From assembly GCF_006345805.1 (NCBI RefSeq), contig NC_042998.1, forward strand, positions 8,060,001 through 8,124,000: a DNA stretch of 64,000 nucleotides. Reading direction: 5' to 3'. A model generated the notes under the pieces. It did not search any database. It was not told the DNA's origin and saw only the letters and a program-made list of their open reading frames with translations. Position numbers and translations under genes: made by a program. Within the stretch, counting starts at the first letter, position 1; every line of letters starts with the position of its first letter. Positions 4,721 through 55,392 of this stretch are shown here, piece by piece. The DNA is from Octopus sinensis (taxonomy: Eukaryota).

Positions 4721-5417
4721 TATTCGTATATTCTGCATTTTTCACGCTTTCTTCTACGAGCTAAAGTGCAAATGTGTGCATAACTATACTTTGCCCATAT
4801 TTTCCTGTGTACATTTACACATTAACTAATAAAAAAATTAAACAACTGGTAACACTAAAGCACCAGTCTGGTTGGTAACATTCCTAGCTAAGACATTGCA
4901 GAAATGAAGAATAACTGAAAGGGATTAGTGTAATCAGGGATGAAATTCCAGCTGGGATTTGGCTTTACAGGAGCTTAACAGTGCTCTGTGATATTGACGT
5001 TCGCATATAGCTGTATAAATATGTTCCAATTCATTATACGTTTGTACAAACCTACATGCATCTATGTATGTATATGTGTCTATGCGTGTGTGTAGCTATA
5101 TAAATATAAATAGGGACAGAGTAAGATAAGAGAGGAGAGAAGGTGGGAATGAAGGGAAGGCCAACAAATGTGAGAGAGGGCGAACGAGAAAAAGAAAGGG
5201 GAAAAGAACGAAGTAAGTGTGAAGGGGTTGAAAGAAAGAGTGAGTCGTACAGAATTTACATACACACACACACACACACATATATATATATGTATGTATG
5301 TATGTATGTACATAAATATCTACATATATATATATATTTACACACACACACATTTAAATATATATATATATACATATGTATGTATGTATATAAATATCTA
5401 CATATATACATATATAT

Positions 5418-5452
<35 letters not shown>

Positions 5453-5511
5453 CATATGTATGTATGTATGTATGTATATAAATATCTACATATATACATA
5501 TATATACATAC

Positions 5512-5571
<60 letters not shown>

Positions 5572-5575
<4 letters not shown>

Positions 5576-6022
5576 ATCCATGACACCAGCCATGCTCTTC
5601 GTTTGTTCAATTTTTTCTCCTTCTCTCCTGTCCTCTCTAAACTTCTCTTCACTCTTGACATCAAGAAGACTTTTGATGTCAAGACGGGGATCTCTCACCA
5701 CGAGGGGCTGCGTGCACTCCAACACTTCCTTGACCTTCGACCCAACCCCGAACCTGACACATCCACACTCATTCGTCTGGCCGAACTTGTCTTCTCACTT
5801 AACTGCTTCTCGTTCGTGGGTGATTTTTATCAGTTGTCGGGAGCAGCCATGGGAACGAGAATGAGCCCCAACTATGCGAACTTGTTCGTTGGCTACGTTG
5901 AGGCCTAAATAATCTCAAGTTTCACTCGTCCCACTCCTGAACTATACGGTCATTATATTGACTGTATCGGTGCGATCTCACTCTCCTGCGAACACCTAGA
6001 CTTTTTCCTCCCATTTGTCAAA
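5572..6022 (+). pseudogene. Penelope-like element reverse transcriptase fragment
   Basis: LLFTLDIK...[15 protein letters not shown]...[16 protein letters not shown]...[21 protein letters not shown], then a stop and a degenerate YID motif. Typical PLE RT core; abuts (TA)n. Confidence 0.85.
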
Positions 6023-7864: not shown

Positions 7865-8214
7865 ACATGCATACATACATACATACATGCATGCATACAT
7901 ACATACATACACACATACATACATACATACATACATACATACTTTGTGTGTAGATATGAAAGATTATATAAGTATATTAATTATACGATTCAAATTATAC
8001 AAAGAAGTTCGACAAATTCAATCCTATTTTTCGTAAATGGAGGATATTATATGATAATATGAAATAGAATATGTTTTATTCATTTTGCTGTTATTGCATG
8101 TTATTTTGTAATGTGTTATTACACACTACAAAAATTAGTAAGAACACCAAACCCATGTAATTCTAAAGTCACCTTTTTTCTATATTTAGTTCTTATTATA
8201 TTTTTTCTTATTGT

Positions 8215-8292
8215 GCTACTGATGAGTACTCTTTGACAACTCAGATTCATAAAATGAATTTATTGTCTTTCTGTACGAAACGATCGTATAGC
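8215..8292 (+). ncRNA. Type I hammerhead ribozyme (PLE-type, palindromic stem III)
   Basis: Stem I GCTA/TAGC; CTGATGA 8219-8225; stem II GTAC/GTAC; GAAA 8277-8280; C-GATC-GTA with predicted cleavage after 8288. Confidence 0.75.
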
Positions 8293-9167
8293 GAAATGAA
8301 TACAAAGTATTATATTCCATATTAACACCTAATCTCTTCCATTTACGAAAAATATAACTAAATTTGTTGAACTTAAATCATATACTCAATATATATATAT
8401 ATATATATATATATTAACACACACACACACATAGGGAGAGATGGATATTTAAGCAAATAGATTTGTAATGTATTTCGGTGTGTGTGGTATTTGTTGTATA
8501 CATATATGTATGTATGTATGTAGTATGTATGTATGTATGTATGTATGTATGTATGTATGTATGTATGTATGTATGTATATATATATATATATATGTACAT
8601 ATAGATATATACATACATATTTGAATATACACATATATACATGCATTCGACATACATGCATGCATACATACATACATACATACATACATACATACATACA
8701 TACATACATACATACATACATACACACATACATACATACACACATACATACATACATACATACACACATACATACACACTTGCATTCATTACAATGTAAA
8801 TAATCATTACTTGAAATTTTAAATATGTAAGTGATTATGTTGCGAATGTTTCGGTTCCGAAACTCAATATTATGAATAAGCCTTAGAAATCTATCTGTAA
8901 AATACAAATTATTTTTCCATTTGGAGCTAAAAAAAAACAAGTATTTTTGGTTGTTTAGGAATGCATTGATGTAAGCGTATGTGTATGCACACATACACAA
9001 ACACAGACTCGTATACATGGCTATATATACATAGGTATATATAAAAATGTATATATACACATATGTACATATATATGTGCATATATATAAATGTAACTCT
9101 ACATACACACACATTTATATATACATATTTATAGGTATGTAAGTCTTCTATGTATATATACATATTG

Positions 9168-23466: not shown

Positions 23467-23623
23467 TTTAAATATTTGTTGTGCAAGATTTTTTACGTGA
23501 AGTCGTGTGTTGAAACAGATATTGTTATATTTCGGAATGGTCATATTGCCAGTTTAGCCAATGAAAACACACGCACTATATATTTATTTGGCTAAACTGG
23601 CAATATGACCATTCCGAAATATA
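23467..23623. mobile_element. Head-to-head inverted fragments of family A pLTR 3' end
   Basis: 23467-23584 is the reverse complement of about 33475-33590; 23586-23623 is in forward orientation. Repeated at about 24755-24915. Confidence 0.8.
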
Positions 23624-23624
23624 A

Positions 23625-23657
<33 letters not shown>

Positions 23658-24733: not shown

Positions 24734-25609
24734 TATAGATAATATATAGTACGTTTAAATATTTGTTGTGCAAGATTTTTTACGTGAAGTCGTGTGTGGT
24801 TGAAAACAGATATTGTTATATTTCGGAATGGTCATATTGCCAGTTTAGCCAATGAAAACACACGCACTATATATTATTTGGCTACTAAACTGGCAATATG
24901 ACCATTCCGAAATATAAATATATATATATATAATATAATTATATATATATATGGATGGATGTATATCTATGTATGTATGTATATTATTTGATGAGGGATA
25001 TATACGAAAGTCTAAGCCTTGAGTTACATTTGTAAATTTCTGCTTATTAAAAAAACATATATAATATCGTCATGTACTGAGTTCTGTTTCATCTGTTCTT
25101 TCAACCAATAAGTGTGTCGGAATTTCAAACTAATAATGTTTAGTTGTTCAGTCAATTTAACAGCAGAAATCGAATTAGCGTGCAAGCGGTTGAGTACTCC
25201 AGAGACATATACACACTGTATAACATATAGTTGTTTATCCTCAGAGGATACGACAATGTTGATATTTTTTTTATGACCAGTGTTCTCGTAGATACAGGTA
25301 AAGTGTGTTGTATTTCTATTCATTGAAACAAGTTATTGTATCTTTTCTTTCTCTGCTTAATTACTTCTCCATGCTCATTAGGAACGGTGACGCAATGGAA
25401 TAGCTTTTCACTCTATTAGATGAAATATGTTTTGCGAATCGACAAATGCATAGCAGAAATATACCGTTAATCAATTCCATGCTAGATTGGACGTTCCTAG
25501 TATTGACTCTTCATCTTAGTACGCAAGAAGCGGCATAATTACATAAAACGAAGATGCGAAAGTAATCAAAAGCAGTTTTCTTATCTATATCCTATTTTGG
25601 TTTAGTAAG

Positions 25610-31550: not shown

Positions 31551-32029
31551 CCATATATTGGTTTTCGTTTCAAATTGATGCGGGAACAATTGATGCAACA
31601 GCACATAATGAACATTATAAAAACTGCCGCGCAGATGTATACTTAGTAATTATACTTTCTCCAATGGGTAAAAAGAGATGAAGTTTGGTGGGGAAAAGGA
31701 AGTCGATTACACCGAACCCCAGGGCCCGACTGGTACTTATTTTATCGGTCCCGAAAGGATGAAAAGCAAAGTCGACCTTGGTAGCTTTAGGAATCAGAAC
31801 GTGTAGACGAACGACATGCCTCAAAGCATGTTGCCAGGCGTGCTATCGATTCTGCCAGTTCGCCCCTTTAGCATATTTAGTAATTATAAAACTTTTATAT
31901 ATACATTGTTATATTTCGGAATGGTCATATTGCCAGTTTAGCCAATAAAAACACACGCACTATATATTTGGTGTTATTTTGCTTCAGTGATATTTATTTT
32001 TTACATTAATCTTAATCTTATTTCGGCCA

Positions 32030-32868
32030 AATTCAATATTTTGATGGCAGACCTCGTCAGAATAATGAGAAATGTGTCACGCATGTGCGAGCCTACAGAA
32101 TTAAAGAGACACATACAGTATTTCATTCACCGCATGCAGTTCTCAGGTTACAGCCATAAAGAAAGGATCAGAGTATACAAAGGAGCCATGAAGAAATTTG
32201 ATAATATATTATGTAATGATAGGAATGGGATTTGCCCACTCTATAGGAACAAGTCATGGAACACTATAGAAAGGACAAAAAAGAAAATAGGGAAGGCCAA
32301 CTCTTGGTATGATAGCCATAAATACCAGAGTGTCATGTTCGTTGACACCACCCCTGGAGGTGAACTGGCGAACCGCTTTAGAAGGACCCTAGATAAATTT
32401 AAACTAAGAATTAAGGTTGTTGAAAAGCCAGGCAACCCTATCAAATCTATAATTGGTAGAACCTATCCTTTTAGTAGAACCCTCTGTACGGATAACTATT
32501 GCACTGTATGTAGATTTAGCCCACAAACAAACTGTAAAGCCAGAAATGTAGTCTATAGTATAAGATGTATAGAGGGACGATGCAGTAACAAGACAGTAAC
32601 ATACGTAGGGGAAACGGCAAGAAGCATAGGAGAGCGGGTGAATGAACATTGGAGACAACTCAAGGAAGGTAAAAGCTCATCGATTCTGTACCAACACGCC
32701 GAACAGGAACACGGGGGATCAATCAATAACATAGAGATTAAGATATTGTCCACACATAGAACAGATGCAACAATTAGACAAATTACAGAAGCTACACATA
32801 TAATAGAAAATAAACCTAGCCTGAATAGAAAACTAGAATGGAGCAATAGCACACACCACAACATATGA
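32030..32868 (+). CDS. PLE RT thumb, Cys-rich linker and C-terminal GIY-YIG endonuclease (5'-truncated, frame open)
   Basis: FVDTTPGGELA, CTDNYCTVC..NC, NVVYSIRC...YVGETARSIGERVNEH, H...EH, EA..I...PSLN. The first ~14 aa of the track ORF (from 31987) come from the inverted pLTR. Confidence 0.9.
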
Positions 32869-32985
32869 CGATAGAGGATCCCGAAAACATAATAAATACA
32901 CAGATAAATAAACAAATAGAAATGAATAACTATATATATGTATATATATCTATGTATGTATATGTATGTATATATATATATATAT

Positions 32986-33017
<32 letters not shown>

Positions 33018-33371
33018 ATGTGTATATATGTGTGTATATGTATATATATATCTTTTTTTTCGATTAGATTTATTATTATTATTACTAATATTGTTGTTAT
33101 ACATACATACAAGCATATGTAATGATAATAATGGGTGGATATAAACACATGAACAAAATTAGAACAAAAGCAACAACAAAAACAAAATACAAATTACATG
33201 AATGTATATAAACAGAAGATACAAATATTACAGGCATCCCCCACACACACACACTAAATAAACATAGACGCACATAGAGATATAAGCATGCGCAAATGAA
33301 GACATACAATAGAAATACAAAATGGCTGACGGTTAGTAAGGAGAGACACAAATAAGTGAGAAGAAAACAAA

Positions 33372-33416
33372 GGACCACTGATGCGGTCACAGGAGTGTGA
33401 CGAAAGAACTCTGGCC
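33372..33416 (+). ncRNA. Hammerhead ribozyme, variant core CUGAUGC, in the 3' pLTR
   Basis: CTGATGC 33378-33384; stem II GTCAC/GTGAC; GAAA 33402-33405; predicted cleavage CTC after 33411; sense to the PLE ORF. Confidence 0.75.
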
Positions 33417-33627
33417 GAAATAAGATTAAGATTAATGTAAAAAATAAATATCACTGAAGCAAAATAACACCAAATATATAGTGCGTGTGTTTTTATTGGC
33501 TAAACTAGCAATATGACCATTCCGAAATATAACAATATCTGTTTCAACACACGACTTCACATAAAAAATCTTGCACAACAAATATTTAAAAGTTTTATAT
33601 ATACATATATACATATATATATACATA

Positions 33628-34029: not shown

Positions 34030-35905
34030 TTAAACTTAAATGTTGCAGTGAATCGAACGGCTTTTTTGTGTTTCTTAAATGGCTTATAAACACCTTCCAC
34101 GCTGCAATTGTTTTCGTTCCAGCACACGATCTCAGATCAAATCACTTGCTATGCAAGTACATCACCGTAATATATATATATTATTGCTGTAAAATAAATT
34201 TCCTCAAATACAGCTTATAGTATTGTCAAACTGACGCTGATATATAAATTTGCAACACTGGTTAGATTTAAATGCATTTTCTTTTAGACATTTTTCCCCC
34301 GCAGCAAGTTTTCTCTAAATCATACCAAATTTCATGAATATGTTTACCCATGAAGTTCTTTACATTCTCCTTTATAAATGCAACATAACTCAAAGAAACC
34401 TATCTGAAAGCAGAAAAGGTTTGTAAGAAATTGGATTTTGAAATAATTTTGTAATTCAAATACATAATAATATACCTTAAAATTCGGAGTAATAAATATA
34501 TCAGAACAAAATAGCCAGAGGAAATAACTAAATAAACTACACATAAAATGCATATTATTATTATTAACTGTTTCATTTCGGTGTCATGGTGATGAATTAA
34601 ACGCTAACGCGATGTTAGGGAAATTTCAAAGTCTGCAGATAAGTTCTGTAGACACGGAGTGCTGCCGAATAGAAGCAGCTCATTGTTGTTGAGGAATAAA
34701 AAAAATAAACGTTTTACTTCAAATACGATCTTATCGTTAGAGGCGGTTTAAAGTTTTACGGAACAAGAATCATGGGAACACGGTGAAACAAGAAGTTTAA
34801 TGATTAAAGAAATACTTAGTAGAATATGCCTTTCATCTATCAAACTGTAGATTGCATAAATACTGAAAAACTTCAAAGAACATATTTGGGGATTGGGAAA
34901 TAATGGATATATTACATCAGTACACAACAGATGCTACTGTAAAATTCCTACGGATGTACATGTATAATGGCTGTCTCTGTAGCTAAGAAATATCACTAAT
35001 AATATCTTTACCTATAATAATATCTAATAATATCTTTACCTCTGCAGCATTACTCAAAGAAAAATATCAGAAACCAGAAAAGATTTGTAACAAATTGGAT
35101 TTTAAAATAATTTCGTAATTCAAATAGATTATCTTATACGATAAAATTCGATGCATTAGATACATCAGAACAAGATAGCCCGAGGAAACCACTAAATAAA
35201 GCACACATAAACTATAATTTATCATTCAACATCGTTTTTGACAGTGAGTCAATTTTGGTTGATAATTGGAGCCTCTATCGGTCAAGGCTGGTCACACATC
35301 AGCACATGCCTAGGCAAAGTTTTTATTTGAGAAAGACGCAGTTTTGCCATGCATGCAACGCTTCCCTGCGGTACCGATTTTATTCAGGGGAAAAGTCTAC
35401 TCACTTGAACTAAACCAGGGTGACGCATGCATTACTATCACAACACAAAGAGTCGGAAAGGTACCGCGCCCCTGAAAGAACAAAAGCTGAAGTTGACTTC
35501 GGTGGGATTTGAGCTCGGAACGCTGAGATTCTGAACAAAAATCATGAAACGTTCTATCCAACGCTCCAAAGGACTGTTATAAAATAAATTAACACTTGCT
35601 TCACAACTTCATAGTTCGGTGTTCAGTACCACCGTGTGGTACCTTTGGCTAGTGTCCTCTATTATAGCATACCACCGACTAAAAAATTCTTCAGTAGACT
35701 TGATAGAAGGAAACTGGATGAAACCTGCAGTGTGTATTTATGTATATATATATATATATTATATATATATATAATATATATATCAACAATCAAGGAACGG
35801 CCATAATAGGCCATTCACCCACTAGAAATAACAGCCAAAGCTTCAACCGCAAATAAAAATCAATTCCGTAAACCAGGAGAAAATTTAAAAAACATTTACC
35901 CTGTA

Positions 35906-36012
35906 ATTTCTTATACGATGCACCGTTTCATCTGCTGTTTAATGGTAAACTAACCTGATTAAATTAAATCAAGCCAATCTTCCATAGGCCCTCAGATTCT
36001 TCAGTAAGAAAT
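35906..36012 (-). ncRNA. Hammerhead ribozyme (family C, minus-strand copy)
   Basis: Reverse complement of 36528-36634. Confidence 0.85.
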
Positions 36013-36527
36013 AGCCAAGCCGGAACAGATATTTTCACGAGGCATTTCCGACCCTGCCAAGGCAATATCTGACCTAAAATTTTCAAATCATCGCACTCGC
36101 GCCAAATTTATCGGCAGCAAATAAATATAAGCCGTCGATTCCATTACGGAATTAACCAGAAAATTCATAATTAATCAATATAGGGTGGCAAAAAAATTTT
36201 GTAGAATTTTTTTGCCACCAGCGGCCTAGTGGGAAAAAATTAAATAGTCATAGACCATTTTTAAGTTCAACATCAACAATCAAGGAACGGCCATAATAGG
36301 CCATTCACCCACTAGAAATAACAGCCAAAGCTTCAACCGCAAATAAAAATAAATTCCTATATTGATTAATTATGAATTTTCTGGTTAATTCCGTAATGGA
36401 ATCGACGGCTTATATTTATTTGCTGCCGATAAATTTGGCGCGAGTGCGATGATTTGAAAATTTTAGGTCAGATATTGCCTTGGCAGGGTCGGAAATGCCT
36501 CGTGAAAATATCTGTTCCGGCTTGGCT

Positions 36528-36634
36528 ATTTCTTACTGAAGAATCTGAGGGCCTATGGAAGATTGGCTTGATTTAATTTAATCAGGTTAGTTTACCATTA
36601 AACAGCAGATGAAACGGTGCATCGTATAAGAAAT
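36528..36634 (+). ncRNA. Type I hammerhead ribozyme (family C)
   Basis: Stem I ATTTCTTA/TAAGAAAT; CTGAAGA 36536-36542; stem II ATCTG/CAGAT with a 58-nt insert; GAAA 36611-36614; stem III ACGGTGCATCGT; GTA cleavage after 36626. Confidence 0.85.
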
Positions 36635-36881
36635 TACAGGGTAAATGTTTTTTAATTTTCTCCTGGTTTACGGAATTGATTTTTATTTGCGGTTGAAGCT
36701 TTGGCTGTTATTCTAGTGGGTGAATGGCCTATTATGGCCGTTCCTTGATTGTTGATGTTGAACTTAAAAATGGTCTATGACTATTTAATTTTTTCCCACT
36801 AGGCCGCTGGTGGCAAAAAAATTCTACAAAATTTTTTTGCCACCCTATATTGATTAATTATATATATATATATATATATAT

Positions 36882-37247
36882 ATTCTTTTATTCTTTTACA
36901 CGTTTCAGTCATTTCACTGAGGCCATGCTGGAGCACCGCGTTTGGTCGAACAAATTGACCCCAGAACTTATTCTTTGAAAGCTTACTACTTATTCTATCG
37001 GCGTCTTTTTCCGAACCGCTAAGCTTCGGGGACATAAACACCCCAACATCGATTGTGAAGTGATGGTGGGGAGATAAACACAGACACAAAGACACACACA
37101 TATATACACACGACAGGCAAATCCATTCACAAGGCTTTGGTCGGGTCGAGGCAATAGTGGAAGGCACTTGCTTAAGGTGCCACGCAGTAGGACTGAACTC
37201 GGAACCATGAGATGGAGAAGTAACTTTCTTACCACACTCTCACGCCT
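36882..37247 (-). mobile_element. SINE family 2, diverged
   Basis: GGCCATGCTGGAGCACCGC and CAAGGCTTTGGTCGG blocks. Confidence 0.75.
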
Positions 37248-39096: not shown

Positions 39097-40184
39097 AGAA
39101 TCGGGTCTGACCCTTAGCTGTATCGTATGTATCAGGGTCAGATTTGCACGAAAGAATTTTTTTCCTTTTTTACTAAGGCATATTTCCGTCAGAGTGAGTG
39201 TCTGTTTGAAGTAGCGGCCGTGGTGAAATTTGGTTCTCCTTTTCGGAGGACTTATCTTTTGTTTTAGTATTCCTGGCCCAGGGTGTTTAAACTGGTCTAA
39301 ATTTTTTAATGAAATATAGTTCTTTATTTTGGCGTTGTGTGAAGGTTGCGTTGTCACTGAATTTATAGAGCGGGTTAGTTGTAAATTTCGGATTTACATT
39401 TCCAGCACATCTATCTATGTGTCCGCTGACCGGTATTTTGCGGTAATCAGGGTTTCTAATTTGTGATTTATGCACCGCCATCCTGTTACGTAAGCTATTT
39501 TTGTATGGCCTATATACTGCCTATTGCAGCCTGCGCATGTTATGACGTAAATTAAGTTTTCTGATGCGCAGGTGAAGTTTGTTCTAATGGTGAACTGGTG
39601 GCCTTGTTCCAGTATAAATTCTGATCCTTCTTTCAAGATGACACAGATTCCGCAGTTGGGCCTTCCACATTTTCTAACTGCTGGTTTTGTGGTTGATGTT
39701 GAGTGCAGTGTAGCTTGGGTTAAAATCCTTTTCAAGGATTTTGGTTGCCGTTTACTTTTAATGATGGTGTGTGTTTCGAGGATCCGGTTCATCTTTGGTC
39801 TCCCTTTAGTAGGGCTGTGCTTTGTAGTATGGTGTTGAAGGCCTCATTGTTGAGTGGGTTGTGTGTAGAGATGTAGGGAAGGGTTTTTAATTGTTCTTTC
39901 TTTTTTGGTTTTGTTTGTCTCAGGTCTTCTATACTTAATTTAAGTACCCGTTGGATTGCACTGTCTATTAGGGGCTGTGGATAGTTTCTATTTGTGAGTG
40001 TGGTTCTAAGTTCCTGGAGACGTGTGTGTCGGGTGTTTGTGTCTGATATATATATATATATATATATATATTCTTTTGCTTGATTGAATCATTTGACAGT
40101 AGCCATGCTAGAACACGGCCTTTAGTCGAACAAATCAATCCAGGACTTATTTTTGTAACTCTAGTTCTACATAGTTCGGGGCTC

Positions 40185-54558: not shown

Positions 54559-55313
54559 ACATATATACAGTGTACATTTAAACACGTAAGAGGTAGCCAT
54601 CATAGGACTACCTACACGCTAGAGAGGACAGTTAAATTCCGAACGACTATTAGAGATAAAAATCGAAGGGATGGAAAAATAAAAACATTTACCATCTAAC
54701 TCCTGTTTTTATTTTTTTCATTACCTCCGATTTTTATCTCTAATAGTGGTTCGGAATTTAACTGTCCTCTCTAGCATGTAGGTAGTCCTATGATGGCTAC
54801 CTCTTATGTGTTTAAATGTACACTGTATATATATGAATAATATATAGTCTATTGACTAAATTTTTACACGCTAGGCCACTGGTAATGGAAATTTCTAATA
54901 TTTCCGATTACCCTTTGATAATATTAAATATTAATTATTGATAAATTTTTGGATAATTTTCGAAACGAAAACGCCGACATATTAATTTGTTGCCGACAGG
55001 AAGCTGCGCTTGCGCGGTAGATTTGAAAAATTAGAATGTATAAGCACGGGGCATATACTGGATTACCTCGTGTATATATATTTAATCTAAGGTGTACCTG
55101 CTGAAGAAGGCTTCGCCTAGCAAATTATTTTATTTGCTAAAAAAAAAGTCTGAAACTATTGGTCCAGGAGTTAGTAAATGTTTATATTTTTCATTCCCTT
55201 CGATTTTTATCTCTAATAGTGGTTCGGAAATGTTACTATCCTCCCTAGCGTGTAGGTATGATGACTACCTCTTATTTATTTAAATGCACACTGAATAATA
55301 TAAGGTCTATTGA
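54559..55313. mobile_element. Head-to-head HHR-containing pLTR/retrozyme insertion (family D, ~473-nt period)
   Basis: 54559-54705 is inverted relative to about 54706-54835; about 54706-54855 is directly repeated at about 55180-55313; HHR at 55097-55168. Confidence 0.8.
55097..55168 (+). ncRNA. Type I hammerhead ribozyme (family D)
   Basis: CCTG-CTGAAGA(55101)-AGGCTT...AAGTCT-GAAAC-TATTG-GTC/CAGG; cleavage after 55164. Confidence 0.8.
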
Positions 55314-55330
55314 CAAAACGCTTTTTGCCT

Positions 55331-55392
55331 TAATAGCTGATGAGATACCGGAGCAGACTTCATTCCCGGTATCGAAACTCTGAGTTTTATTA
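55331..55392 (+). ncRNA. Type I hammerhead ribozyme (family E)
   Basis: TAATAG-CTGATGA(55337)-GATACCGG-loop-CCGGTATC-GAAA-CTCTGAG-TT/TTATTA; perfect 8-bp stem II. Confidence 0.85.

Follow-up and report, generated by a model that had tools for sequence, protein, structure and literature searches.

We found that an insertion in Octopus sinensis (NC_042998.1) is one young copy among the many hundreds of copies of a dispersed, non-coding hammerhead family. The insertion lies in a stretch of 64,000 nucleotides that was analysed as a whole (the window). Our results fit best with a dispersed hammerhead retrozyme with a 490-nt unit that is likely mobilised in trans by the reverse transcriptase (RT) and GIY-YIG functions of a Penelope-like element (PLE), and for which a circular monomer is the likely main template (probability roughly 0.6). 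That the family is a PLE-mobilised retrozyme, whatever its template, is very probable. We would give about even odds to a further notion: that the family is a record of rolling-circle reverse transcription, in which a dimeric Penelope-type RT starts from a single circle at a pair of fixed internal sites, one for each nicked strand, and in which a conserved tail motif and hairpin are the missing cis-signal of animal retrozymes. If this is true, the two-site start would explain both the priming of an RNA that has no ends and the one-ended tail of PLEs.

Priming and reinsertion of animal retrozyme circles have been published as a hypothesis without direct evidence, judging from the accessible parts of the literature, and the tail and inverted-arm structure of PLEs is mechanistically open. 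A young family of this kind joins the two questions. Exact sites of likely initiation, a candidate recognition signal and a strict rule for the pairing of ends can now be named, and the haplotype test that we made within insertions can be used on retrozyme families in general. An RT able to start inside a circular template and write multimeric copies into DNA would also be of interest as a tool. A literature search, with most subscription papers outside its range, found no paper on a cephalopod retrozyme, on strict two-end pairing or on twin priming of a retrozyme.

The insertion, its family and its hammerhead

The element spans positions 35782-36861 of the window, with a (TA)n run on either side (Table 1). 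It is made of two head-to-head arms, 99% identical to each other, of a non-coding 490-nt unit that has a GC content of 0.37 and no LTR structure. No ATG-started ORF of at least 30 aa lies wholly within 35782-36861. A target site duplication is unreadable because the target itself is a (TA)n repeat on both sides. The first-pass annotation of this DNA had described a non-coding head-to-head insertion in (TA)n, and the coordinates, the ORF check and the flanks agree with it. It had also described each arm as longer than one unit of ~490 nt and terminally redundant, which is correct: the redundancy is 86 nt (1 mismatch) in the left arm and 18 nt in the right. The arms end at two different sites in the unit, A and B. 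Site A, which forms the left-arm end at 35782, is read through at 36756 in the right arm. A hairpin lies 13-17 nt upstream of each of the two sites.

Table 1. Features of the insertion and its flanks (window positions). Unit positions are numbered from the hammerhead cut.
Feature	Positions	Strand	Details
Left (TA)n target	35735..35781	.	
Left arm (A arm)	35782..36357	-	576 nt (1.18 units); unit position 132 (fixed site A) at the outer 3' end and 47 at the inner 5' end
Type I hammerhead, left arm	35906..36012	-	motif scan; identical to the right-arm one; predicted cut between 35914 and 35913
Head-to-head junction	36356..36357	.	2-nt microhomology CC (arm overlap); arm alignment; 2-5 nt overlaps in excess family-wide
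Right arm (B arm)	36356..36861	+	506 nt (1.03 units); unit position ~237 (fixed site B) at the outer 3' end and 220 at the inner 5' end
Type I hammerhead, right arm	36528..36634	+	motif scan; stem I 36528-36535/36627-36634, core CUGAAGA 36536-36542, stem II closing helix 36543-36547/36606-36610, GAAA 36611-36614; predicted cut after 36626
Site A module within right arm	36722..36756	+	hairpin 36722-36743, then 13 nt to site A at 36756
Segment from past site A (36756) to right-arm outer end, site B	36757..36861	+	tail = 105 nt
Tail signal common to sister families	36799..36846	+	conserved 10-nt motif, then 15-bp hairpin (36809-36844) closed by GGU/ACC, 17 nt before site B
Right (TA)n target	36862..36883	.	

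The genome search yielded 935 candidates; 40 of these were scored, and 38 loci were taken from that list. A further 60 loci on chromosome 1 were chosen by exact end patterns, for a total of 98 loci including the window; L040 was left out as a duplicate of L037. Genome-wide there were 474 exact A ends, 685 exact B ends and 2,691 exact copies of the cut-site region (controls, 0), all of which are lower bounds because subfamilies differ at their ends. Among the pattern-picked pairs, 28/90 arms were longer than one unit. Arrays reach 12 bare units and are dispersed over many chromosomes.

The suggestion of a retrozyme family was borne out by these dispersed, non-coding, GC-poor (0.37) tandem 490-nt hammerhead units. 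As described in the accessible parts of three sources (Cervera and de la Pena 2020, PMC7229834; the review PMC7761336; Li et al. 2026, bioRxiv 10.64898/2026.07.22.740005), the non-LTR retrozymes of metazoans are alike in having tandem units that are non-coding and hold one type I hammerhead each, a GC content under 50%, arrays from monomer to ~12-mer, co-occurrence with PLEs and a strongly folding unit. At 490 nt, the unit is above the 150-450 bp first described and inside the 51-972 bp of Li et al. 2026. In contrast, two-arm head-to-head insertions, fixed initiation sites, a tail, (TA)n targeting and template haplotype tests are undescribed in those parts.

Each arm contains an uncut, canonical hammerhead, as first annotated, with an 8-bp stem I, a long stem II, a short stem III with a palindromic UGCA loop, and a GUA triplet ending at 36626. 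Rfam reported no hammerhead here at its gathering or E-value threshold; the evidence for a ribozyme is therefore the motif scan together with conservation. Other Rfam matches in the element scored below gathering and were taken as chance.

By its pattern of substitutions, the putative ribozyme is under selection. Variation in the hammerhead core was 2/916 calls, compared to 665/40,820 overall. Compensatory changes were found at one pair of stem I (A-U in 64 loci, G-C in 16) and at two pairs of stem II (U-A in 75, C-G in 5; G-C in 67, A-U in 13), counts of loci that reflect approximately three independent events. Loop III alternates between two palindromes, UGCA (81) and UAUA (6). One stem II pair was broken in 14/81 loci. 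The local fold at the hammerhead had z = -3.8 and the circular unit folded at -139 kcal/mol (z = -5.1 vs 40 shuffles); the complete catalytic fold was not obtained as the minimum-energy fold of either. Cleavage after 36626 is a prediction from the motif. Among Xenopus retrozyme dimers, 1/9 was cleaved in vitro, according to the accessible part of the report (Li et al. 2026).

Two fixed outer ends and their pairing

We found that the outer ends of the arms are fixed. In 195 aligned pieces from the 98 loci, 89 outer ends were at site A (~132), 89 at site B (~237) and 17 elsewhere; the two sites are 105 nt apart. The 17 other-ended pieces were mostly internal rearranged pieces, and two were cut by the fetch boundary. 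The solo array L037 (3.1 units, with (TA)n on both sides) ends at unit position 209 and is an exception to the A/B rule.

The two ends are also strictly paired. Among 86 head-to-head junctions, 71 were A+B, none was A+A or B+B, and 15 involved an internal, truncated or cut-off piece, so that every simple junction (71/71) joined one A arm with one B arm. Loci picked by their B end had an A partner in 32/32 simple pairs (of 40 loci), and those picked by their A end had a B partner in 12/12 (of 20 loci). The arms had been annotated as different circular permutations of one monomer. Their start and end points within the unit do differ, but throughout the genome the outer ends fall on one pair of sites, and this rules out a random permutation of arm ends.

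The inner ends were variable and scattered round the unit. Inner ends within 10 nt of the cut site numbered 14/142 vs 8.7 expected (P = 0.04), a weak excess for which narrower ranges were picked post hoc. Of the 44 junctions without inserted bases, 28 had an overlap of 2-5 nt, compared to ~8 expected. Inserted bases were present at 27 junctions, and several of these inserts were visibly copied from nearby sequence. In one locus (L044:2926-3085), 158 nt of unrelated sequence lie between two arms, possibly captured at joining.

In 22/71 junctions, the window locus included, neither arm contains the other, and two primings are therefore required. The annotated joining of two cDNAs at the CC microhomology stands in this form, as two independently primed arms that overlap at 36356-36357, with the 2-5 nt excess found family-wide. 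In L1 twin priming, a single RNA is primed twice and the resulting inversion has microhomology at its joint, as here. In L1 the second site is variable and the cDNAs barely overlap, whereas here both sites are fixed and the overlap reaches several units. Both inner ends were at nearly one template coordinate in 13/71 junctions (permutation mean 3.0, maximum 11 in 5,000), as could result from fold-back in these cases or from a stop common to both arms.

This end architecture resembles that of EN+ PLEs, in which arms are inverted and truncated and one end carries a tail of 30-40 bp (Craig et al. 2021, PMC8557442; Arkhipova et al. 2013, PMC3846280). Both target strands can be nicked and then extended by a PLE protein (Frangieh et al. 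2024, PMC11167929). In the accessible text of that study, the PAc RT initiates internally at two sites bounding the tail and is predicted to form a dimer; its start site is alike on both strands, and hammerhead cleavage is dispensable in vitro, two points that count against our reading.

A coding PLE family at 31.9-33.6 kb of the window follows the same rule. It has two ends ~57 nt apart, and 30 loci gave 22 short ends, 20 long ends and 1 unclear. In 10/11 loci with ends on both strands, a short end was paired with a long one. The copy at 31906-33595 is a truncated member of this very young family, with the GIY-YIG C-terminus at 31942-32868; its left end is short and inverted, and its right end is long. 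More ends of the family are at ~22320, 23522-23627 and 24813-24920.

Because the end rule matches both a coding PLE of this genome and the two-site initiation of PAc, we read A and B as initiation sites. They are most likely the two sites at which an RT starts. The earlier proposal of mobilisation by a PLE gains from the same fixed A+B rule. An inverted 5'-truncated arm, fixed 3' ends and a one-ended tail, as in non-autonomous elements mobilised by PLEs, are all present; the RT and GIY-YIG ORF of an autonomous EN+ PLE is absent, as the element has no ORF. Further likenesses to EN+ PLEs, from the accessible parts of PMC8557442, PMC3846280 and PMC11167929, are the head-to-head orientation, microhomology joints, palindromic junctions, (TA)n targets and a type I hammerhead. 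Unlike those elements, the retrozyme lacks an ORF, its tail is 105 nt, and its arms are multimers of a bare unit. Also, the EN+ PLE tail is described there as optional or often one-ended, in contrast to the strict rule of one short and one long end here (71/71).

The RNA template

We compared units within and between insertions. Units differed by 0.45% within an arm and by 0.41% between the arms of one insertion, compared to 2.62% between insertions. In the young set the values were 0.39-0.41% within and 1.14% between. At family-polymorphic sites, 2,747 cells were pure and 41 mixed, whereas 930 mixed cells were expected from independent units. In 48 insertions, 213 variants were fixed in all copies, 34 were partly shared and 203 were single, although such counts within arrays are open to assembly errors and polishing. 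Private variants were fixed in up to 12/12 units. An array of 11.7 units that differs by 8% from the window unit had just 9 variable columns.

A new variant that is fixed in all units of both arms implies passage through a monomer and then re-amplification, which a circle does directly. The homogeneity within insertions points to a monomer bottleneck, most simply a circle, and the monomer circle is somewhat favoured as the main template. The cut-site junction had its exact length in 241/253 copies, with no added bases; the other 12 had short deletions. This argues against an RT that jumps between linear monomers. In R2, bases are added at jumps between linear templates.

An alternative that retains appreciable weight, although we think it unlikely, is PLE twin priming on an uncleaved linear multimer from a young homogeneous source array, with circles as a by-product. 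Both window arms could be covered by just ~680 nt of linear RNA, so this locus alone cannot tell a circle from a multimer. The first-pass annotation had taken the arms as a footprint of a circular or multimeric RNA. A template longer than one unit was upheld; permuted ends as a sign of a circle were not, since the two 3' ends lie at fixed initiation sites of the PLE type, and the evidence for a circle comes instead from the homogeneity of long arrays elsewhere. In 3/39 insertions, one unit-specific variant was common to both arms at the same unit index, and in none was it out of phase. Such variants are impossible from a pure monomer circle and call for a linear or circular multimer, or for conversion between arms. 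They also suggest that a single unit of a single molecule was the starting point of the two cDNAs. Against these 3 in-phase variants, 57 were private to one arm, and the number of pairs of insertions sharing a unit-specific variant in phase (3/17) was not above expectation (5.5). An excess of same-index variants across insertions (71 vs 37.5) was gone (3 vs 5.5) once end-adjacent positions, homopolymer positions and pieces lacking an A or B end were removed. Moreover, when a linear multimer is copied, the array cannot grow and a new variant cannot spread to every unit, whereas the 32 arrays show 22 fixed haplotypes. The conservation of the hammerhead, with its compensatory changes, also speaks against this alternative.

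It is improbable that the units are solo or tandem pseudo-LTRs shed from a coding PLE, that is, ordinary 5'-truncated copies. The end architecture is PLE-like, and 24/57 Xenopus retrozyme families match known elements, nearly all of them PLE terminal repeats, in the accessible part of Li et al. (2026, bioRxiv 10.64898/2026.07.22.740005). However, in the coding-PLE loci checked the unit was never a terminal repeat of a PLE ORF. The annotation had proposed a genome-wide tabulation of copy ends, with fixed ends and attachment to a coding PLE as the outcome that would favour pseudo-LTRs; the ends are indeed fixed, at A and B, and attachment was not found in those loci. Next to the inner ends in the 98 loci lies a second arm, a (TA)n run or a short piece of other DNA, and arrays of up to 12 bare units exist.

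A little less probable again is that short insertions were later grown and homogenised as DNA arrays, by unequal exchange, slippage or conversion between inverted arms. The 12-unit array L047 has two linked variants in 3 non-periodic units, a pattern that suggests exchange at the DNA level, and the doubletons of L251 and the 34 partly shared variants are of the same kind. But the arms are as alike as the units within an arm (0.41% vs 0.45%), and the pattern holds in very young insertions over many chromosomes, with A and B ends intact. Least probable is a single primed cDNA whose inverted arm arose by fold-back self-priming: the 13/71 junctions with near-equal inner ends would give palindromic junctions like the self-priming cases in PMC3846280 (accessible part), but the 22/71 junctions in which neither arm contains the other, the window's among them, limit this to a subset at most and exclude it as the general mechanism.

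We return to a retrozyme that is likely mobilised in trans and copied mainly from a monomer circle, and propose the following cycle. Multimeric transcripts would self-cleave and be ligated into 490-nt circles. A PLE protein, probably a dimer, would bind the tail region and nick both strands of a (TA)n target. On one RNA, internal site A would serve as the start of one cDNA and internal site B as that of the other. An internal start would make an RNA 3' end unnecessary, and each RT could circle for a fraction of a unit to ~12 units. The cDNAs would halt at variable points and be joined head-to-head through 1-5 nt of microhomology or short templated inserts. A minority of insertions likely came from multimeric templates. 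Multimeric cDNA templated by a circle and mobilisation by PLEs were both put forward as hypotheses in PMC7229834 and PMC7761336 (accessible parts).

One 521-nt contig, from one of four public sequencing runs of uncertain type, closes on itself (490+31). It is ~98% identical and has a single haplotype at a depth of 6. This is a weak hint of a circle, since a tandem array in DNA could give the same contig. In the same run, part of an abundant flanking repeat is without cover. Contig depths in these runs cannot rank expression.

The mobilising element and the tail signal

We searched for a driver by GIY-YIG family and protein searches, and inspected the 3' regions of four young coding PLE families out of thousands of PLE candidates. 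Neither the unit nor the tail signal was present in these four families. Matches to the unit or signal near coding PLEs (L161, L162, L170, L211, L213 and L255) proved to be separate insertions in adjoining (TA)n. Non-coding derivatives of Chlamys PLEs such as MRC1 (PMC8557442, accessible part) are likewise mobilised by PLEs and form multicopy head-to-tail insertions. At their 3' end those derivatives are similar to an autonomous family, and most have no canonical hammerhead, whereas here no matching autonomous family was found among the four and the hammerhead is conserved.

Two other PLE families have fragments in the window. At 39415-39843 (minus strand) there is a fragment of a young family, also seen at L159-L169, with frames of ~780 aa (RT + GIY-YIG), copies 97-99% identical and ends in (TA)n; it has no similarity to the 490-nt unit. 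At 5174-5908 there is an RT fragment related to another young, abundant family (L253-L256), which has a long pyrimidine-rich 3' region without the tail signal.

We found that the tail motif and hairpin extend beyond the 490-nt family. There were 6,661 matches (control, 0), which define a larger superfamily, and the signal was present in several diverged families, some with their own hammerheads. The GGU/ACC-closed stem folded in 9/11 representative sister sequences, with z from -4.7 to +0.5. In the sister head-to-head loci inspected, one short end was paired with one long end in 4/4. Animal retrozymes have been described as having no conserved motif that points to the mobilising element (PMC7761336, accessible part); unlike that description, the tail signal here is conserved across several families. 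The words of the signal were absent from the accessible part of the supplement of PMC8557442. A scan of viral contigs for the signal pattern gave 8 matches, none like the unit or the signal profile.

Several sister families were seen along the way. One, at L161:5964-7001 and L162, has a unit of ~535 nt with a hammerhead of its own; its arms are head-to-head, and it has an end like B. Others (L132:2280-2885, L186:1030-1553, L187, L193 and L213:2756-3345) have units of ~410-475 nt where measured, and several keep hammerheads and the two-end rule. Within the window, 54568-55340 is a diverged relative of the 490-nt unit (local alignment score 355 vs a shuffle maximum of 259), with a tail signal at 54871 and an inverted repeat beside (TA)n. 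Two further type I hammerhead motifs lie on the plus strand of the window, at 8214-8293 and 55331-55392, and the second resembles a motif beside a Neptune-like family.
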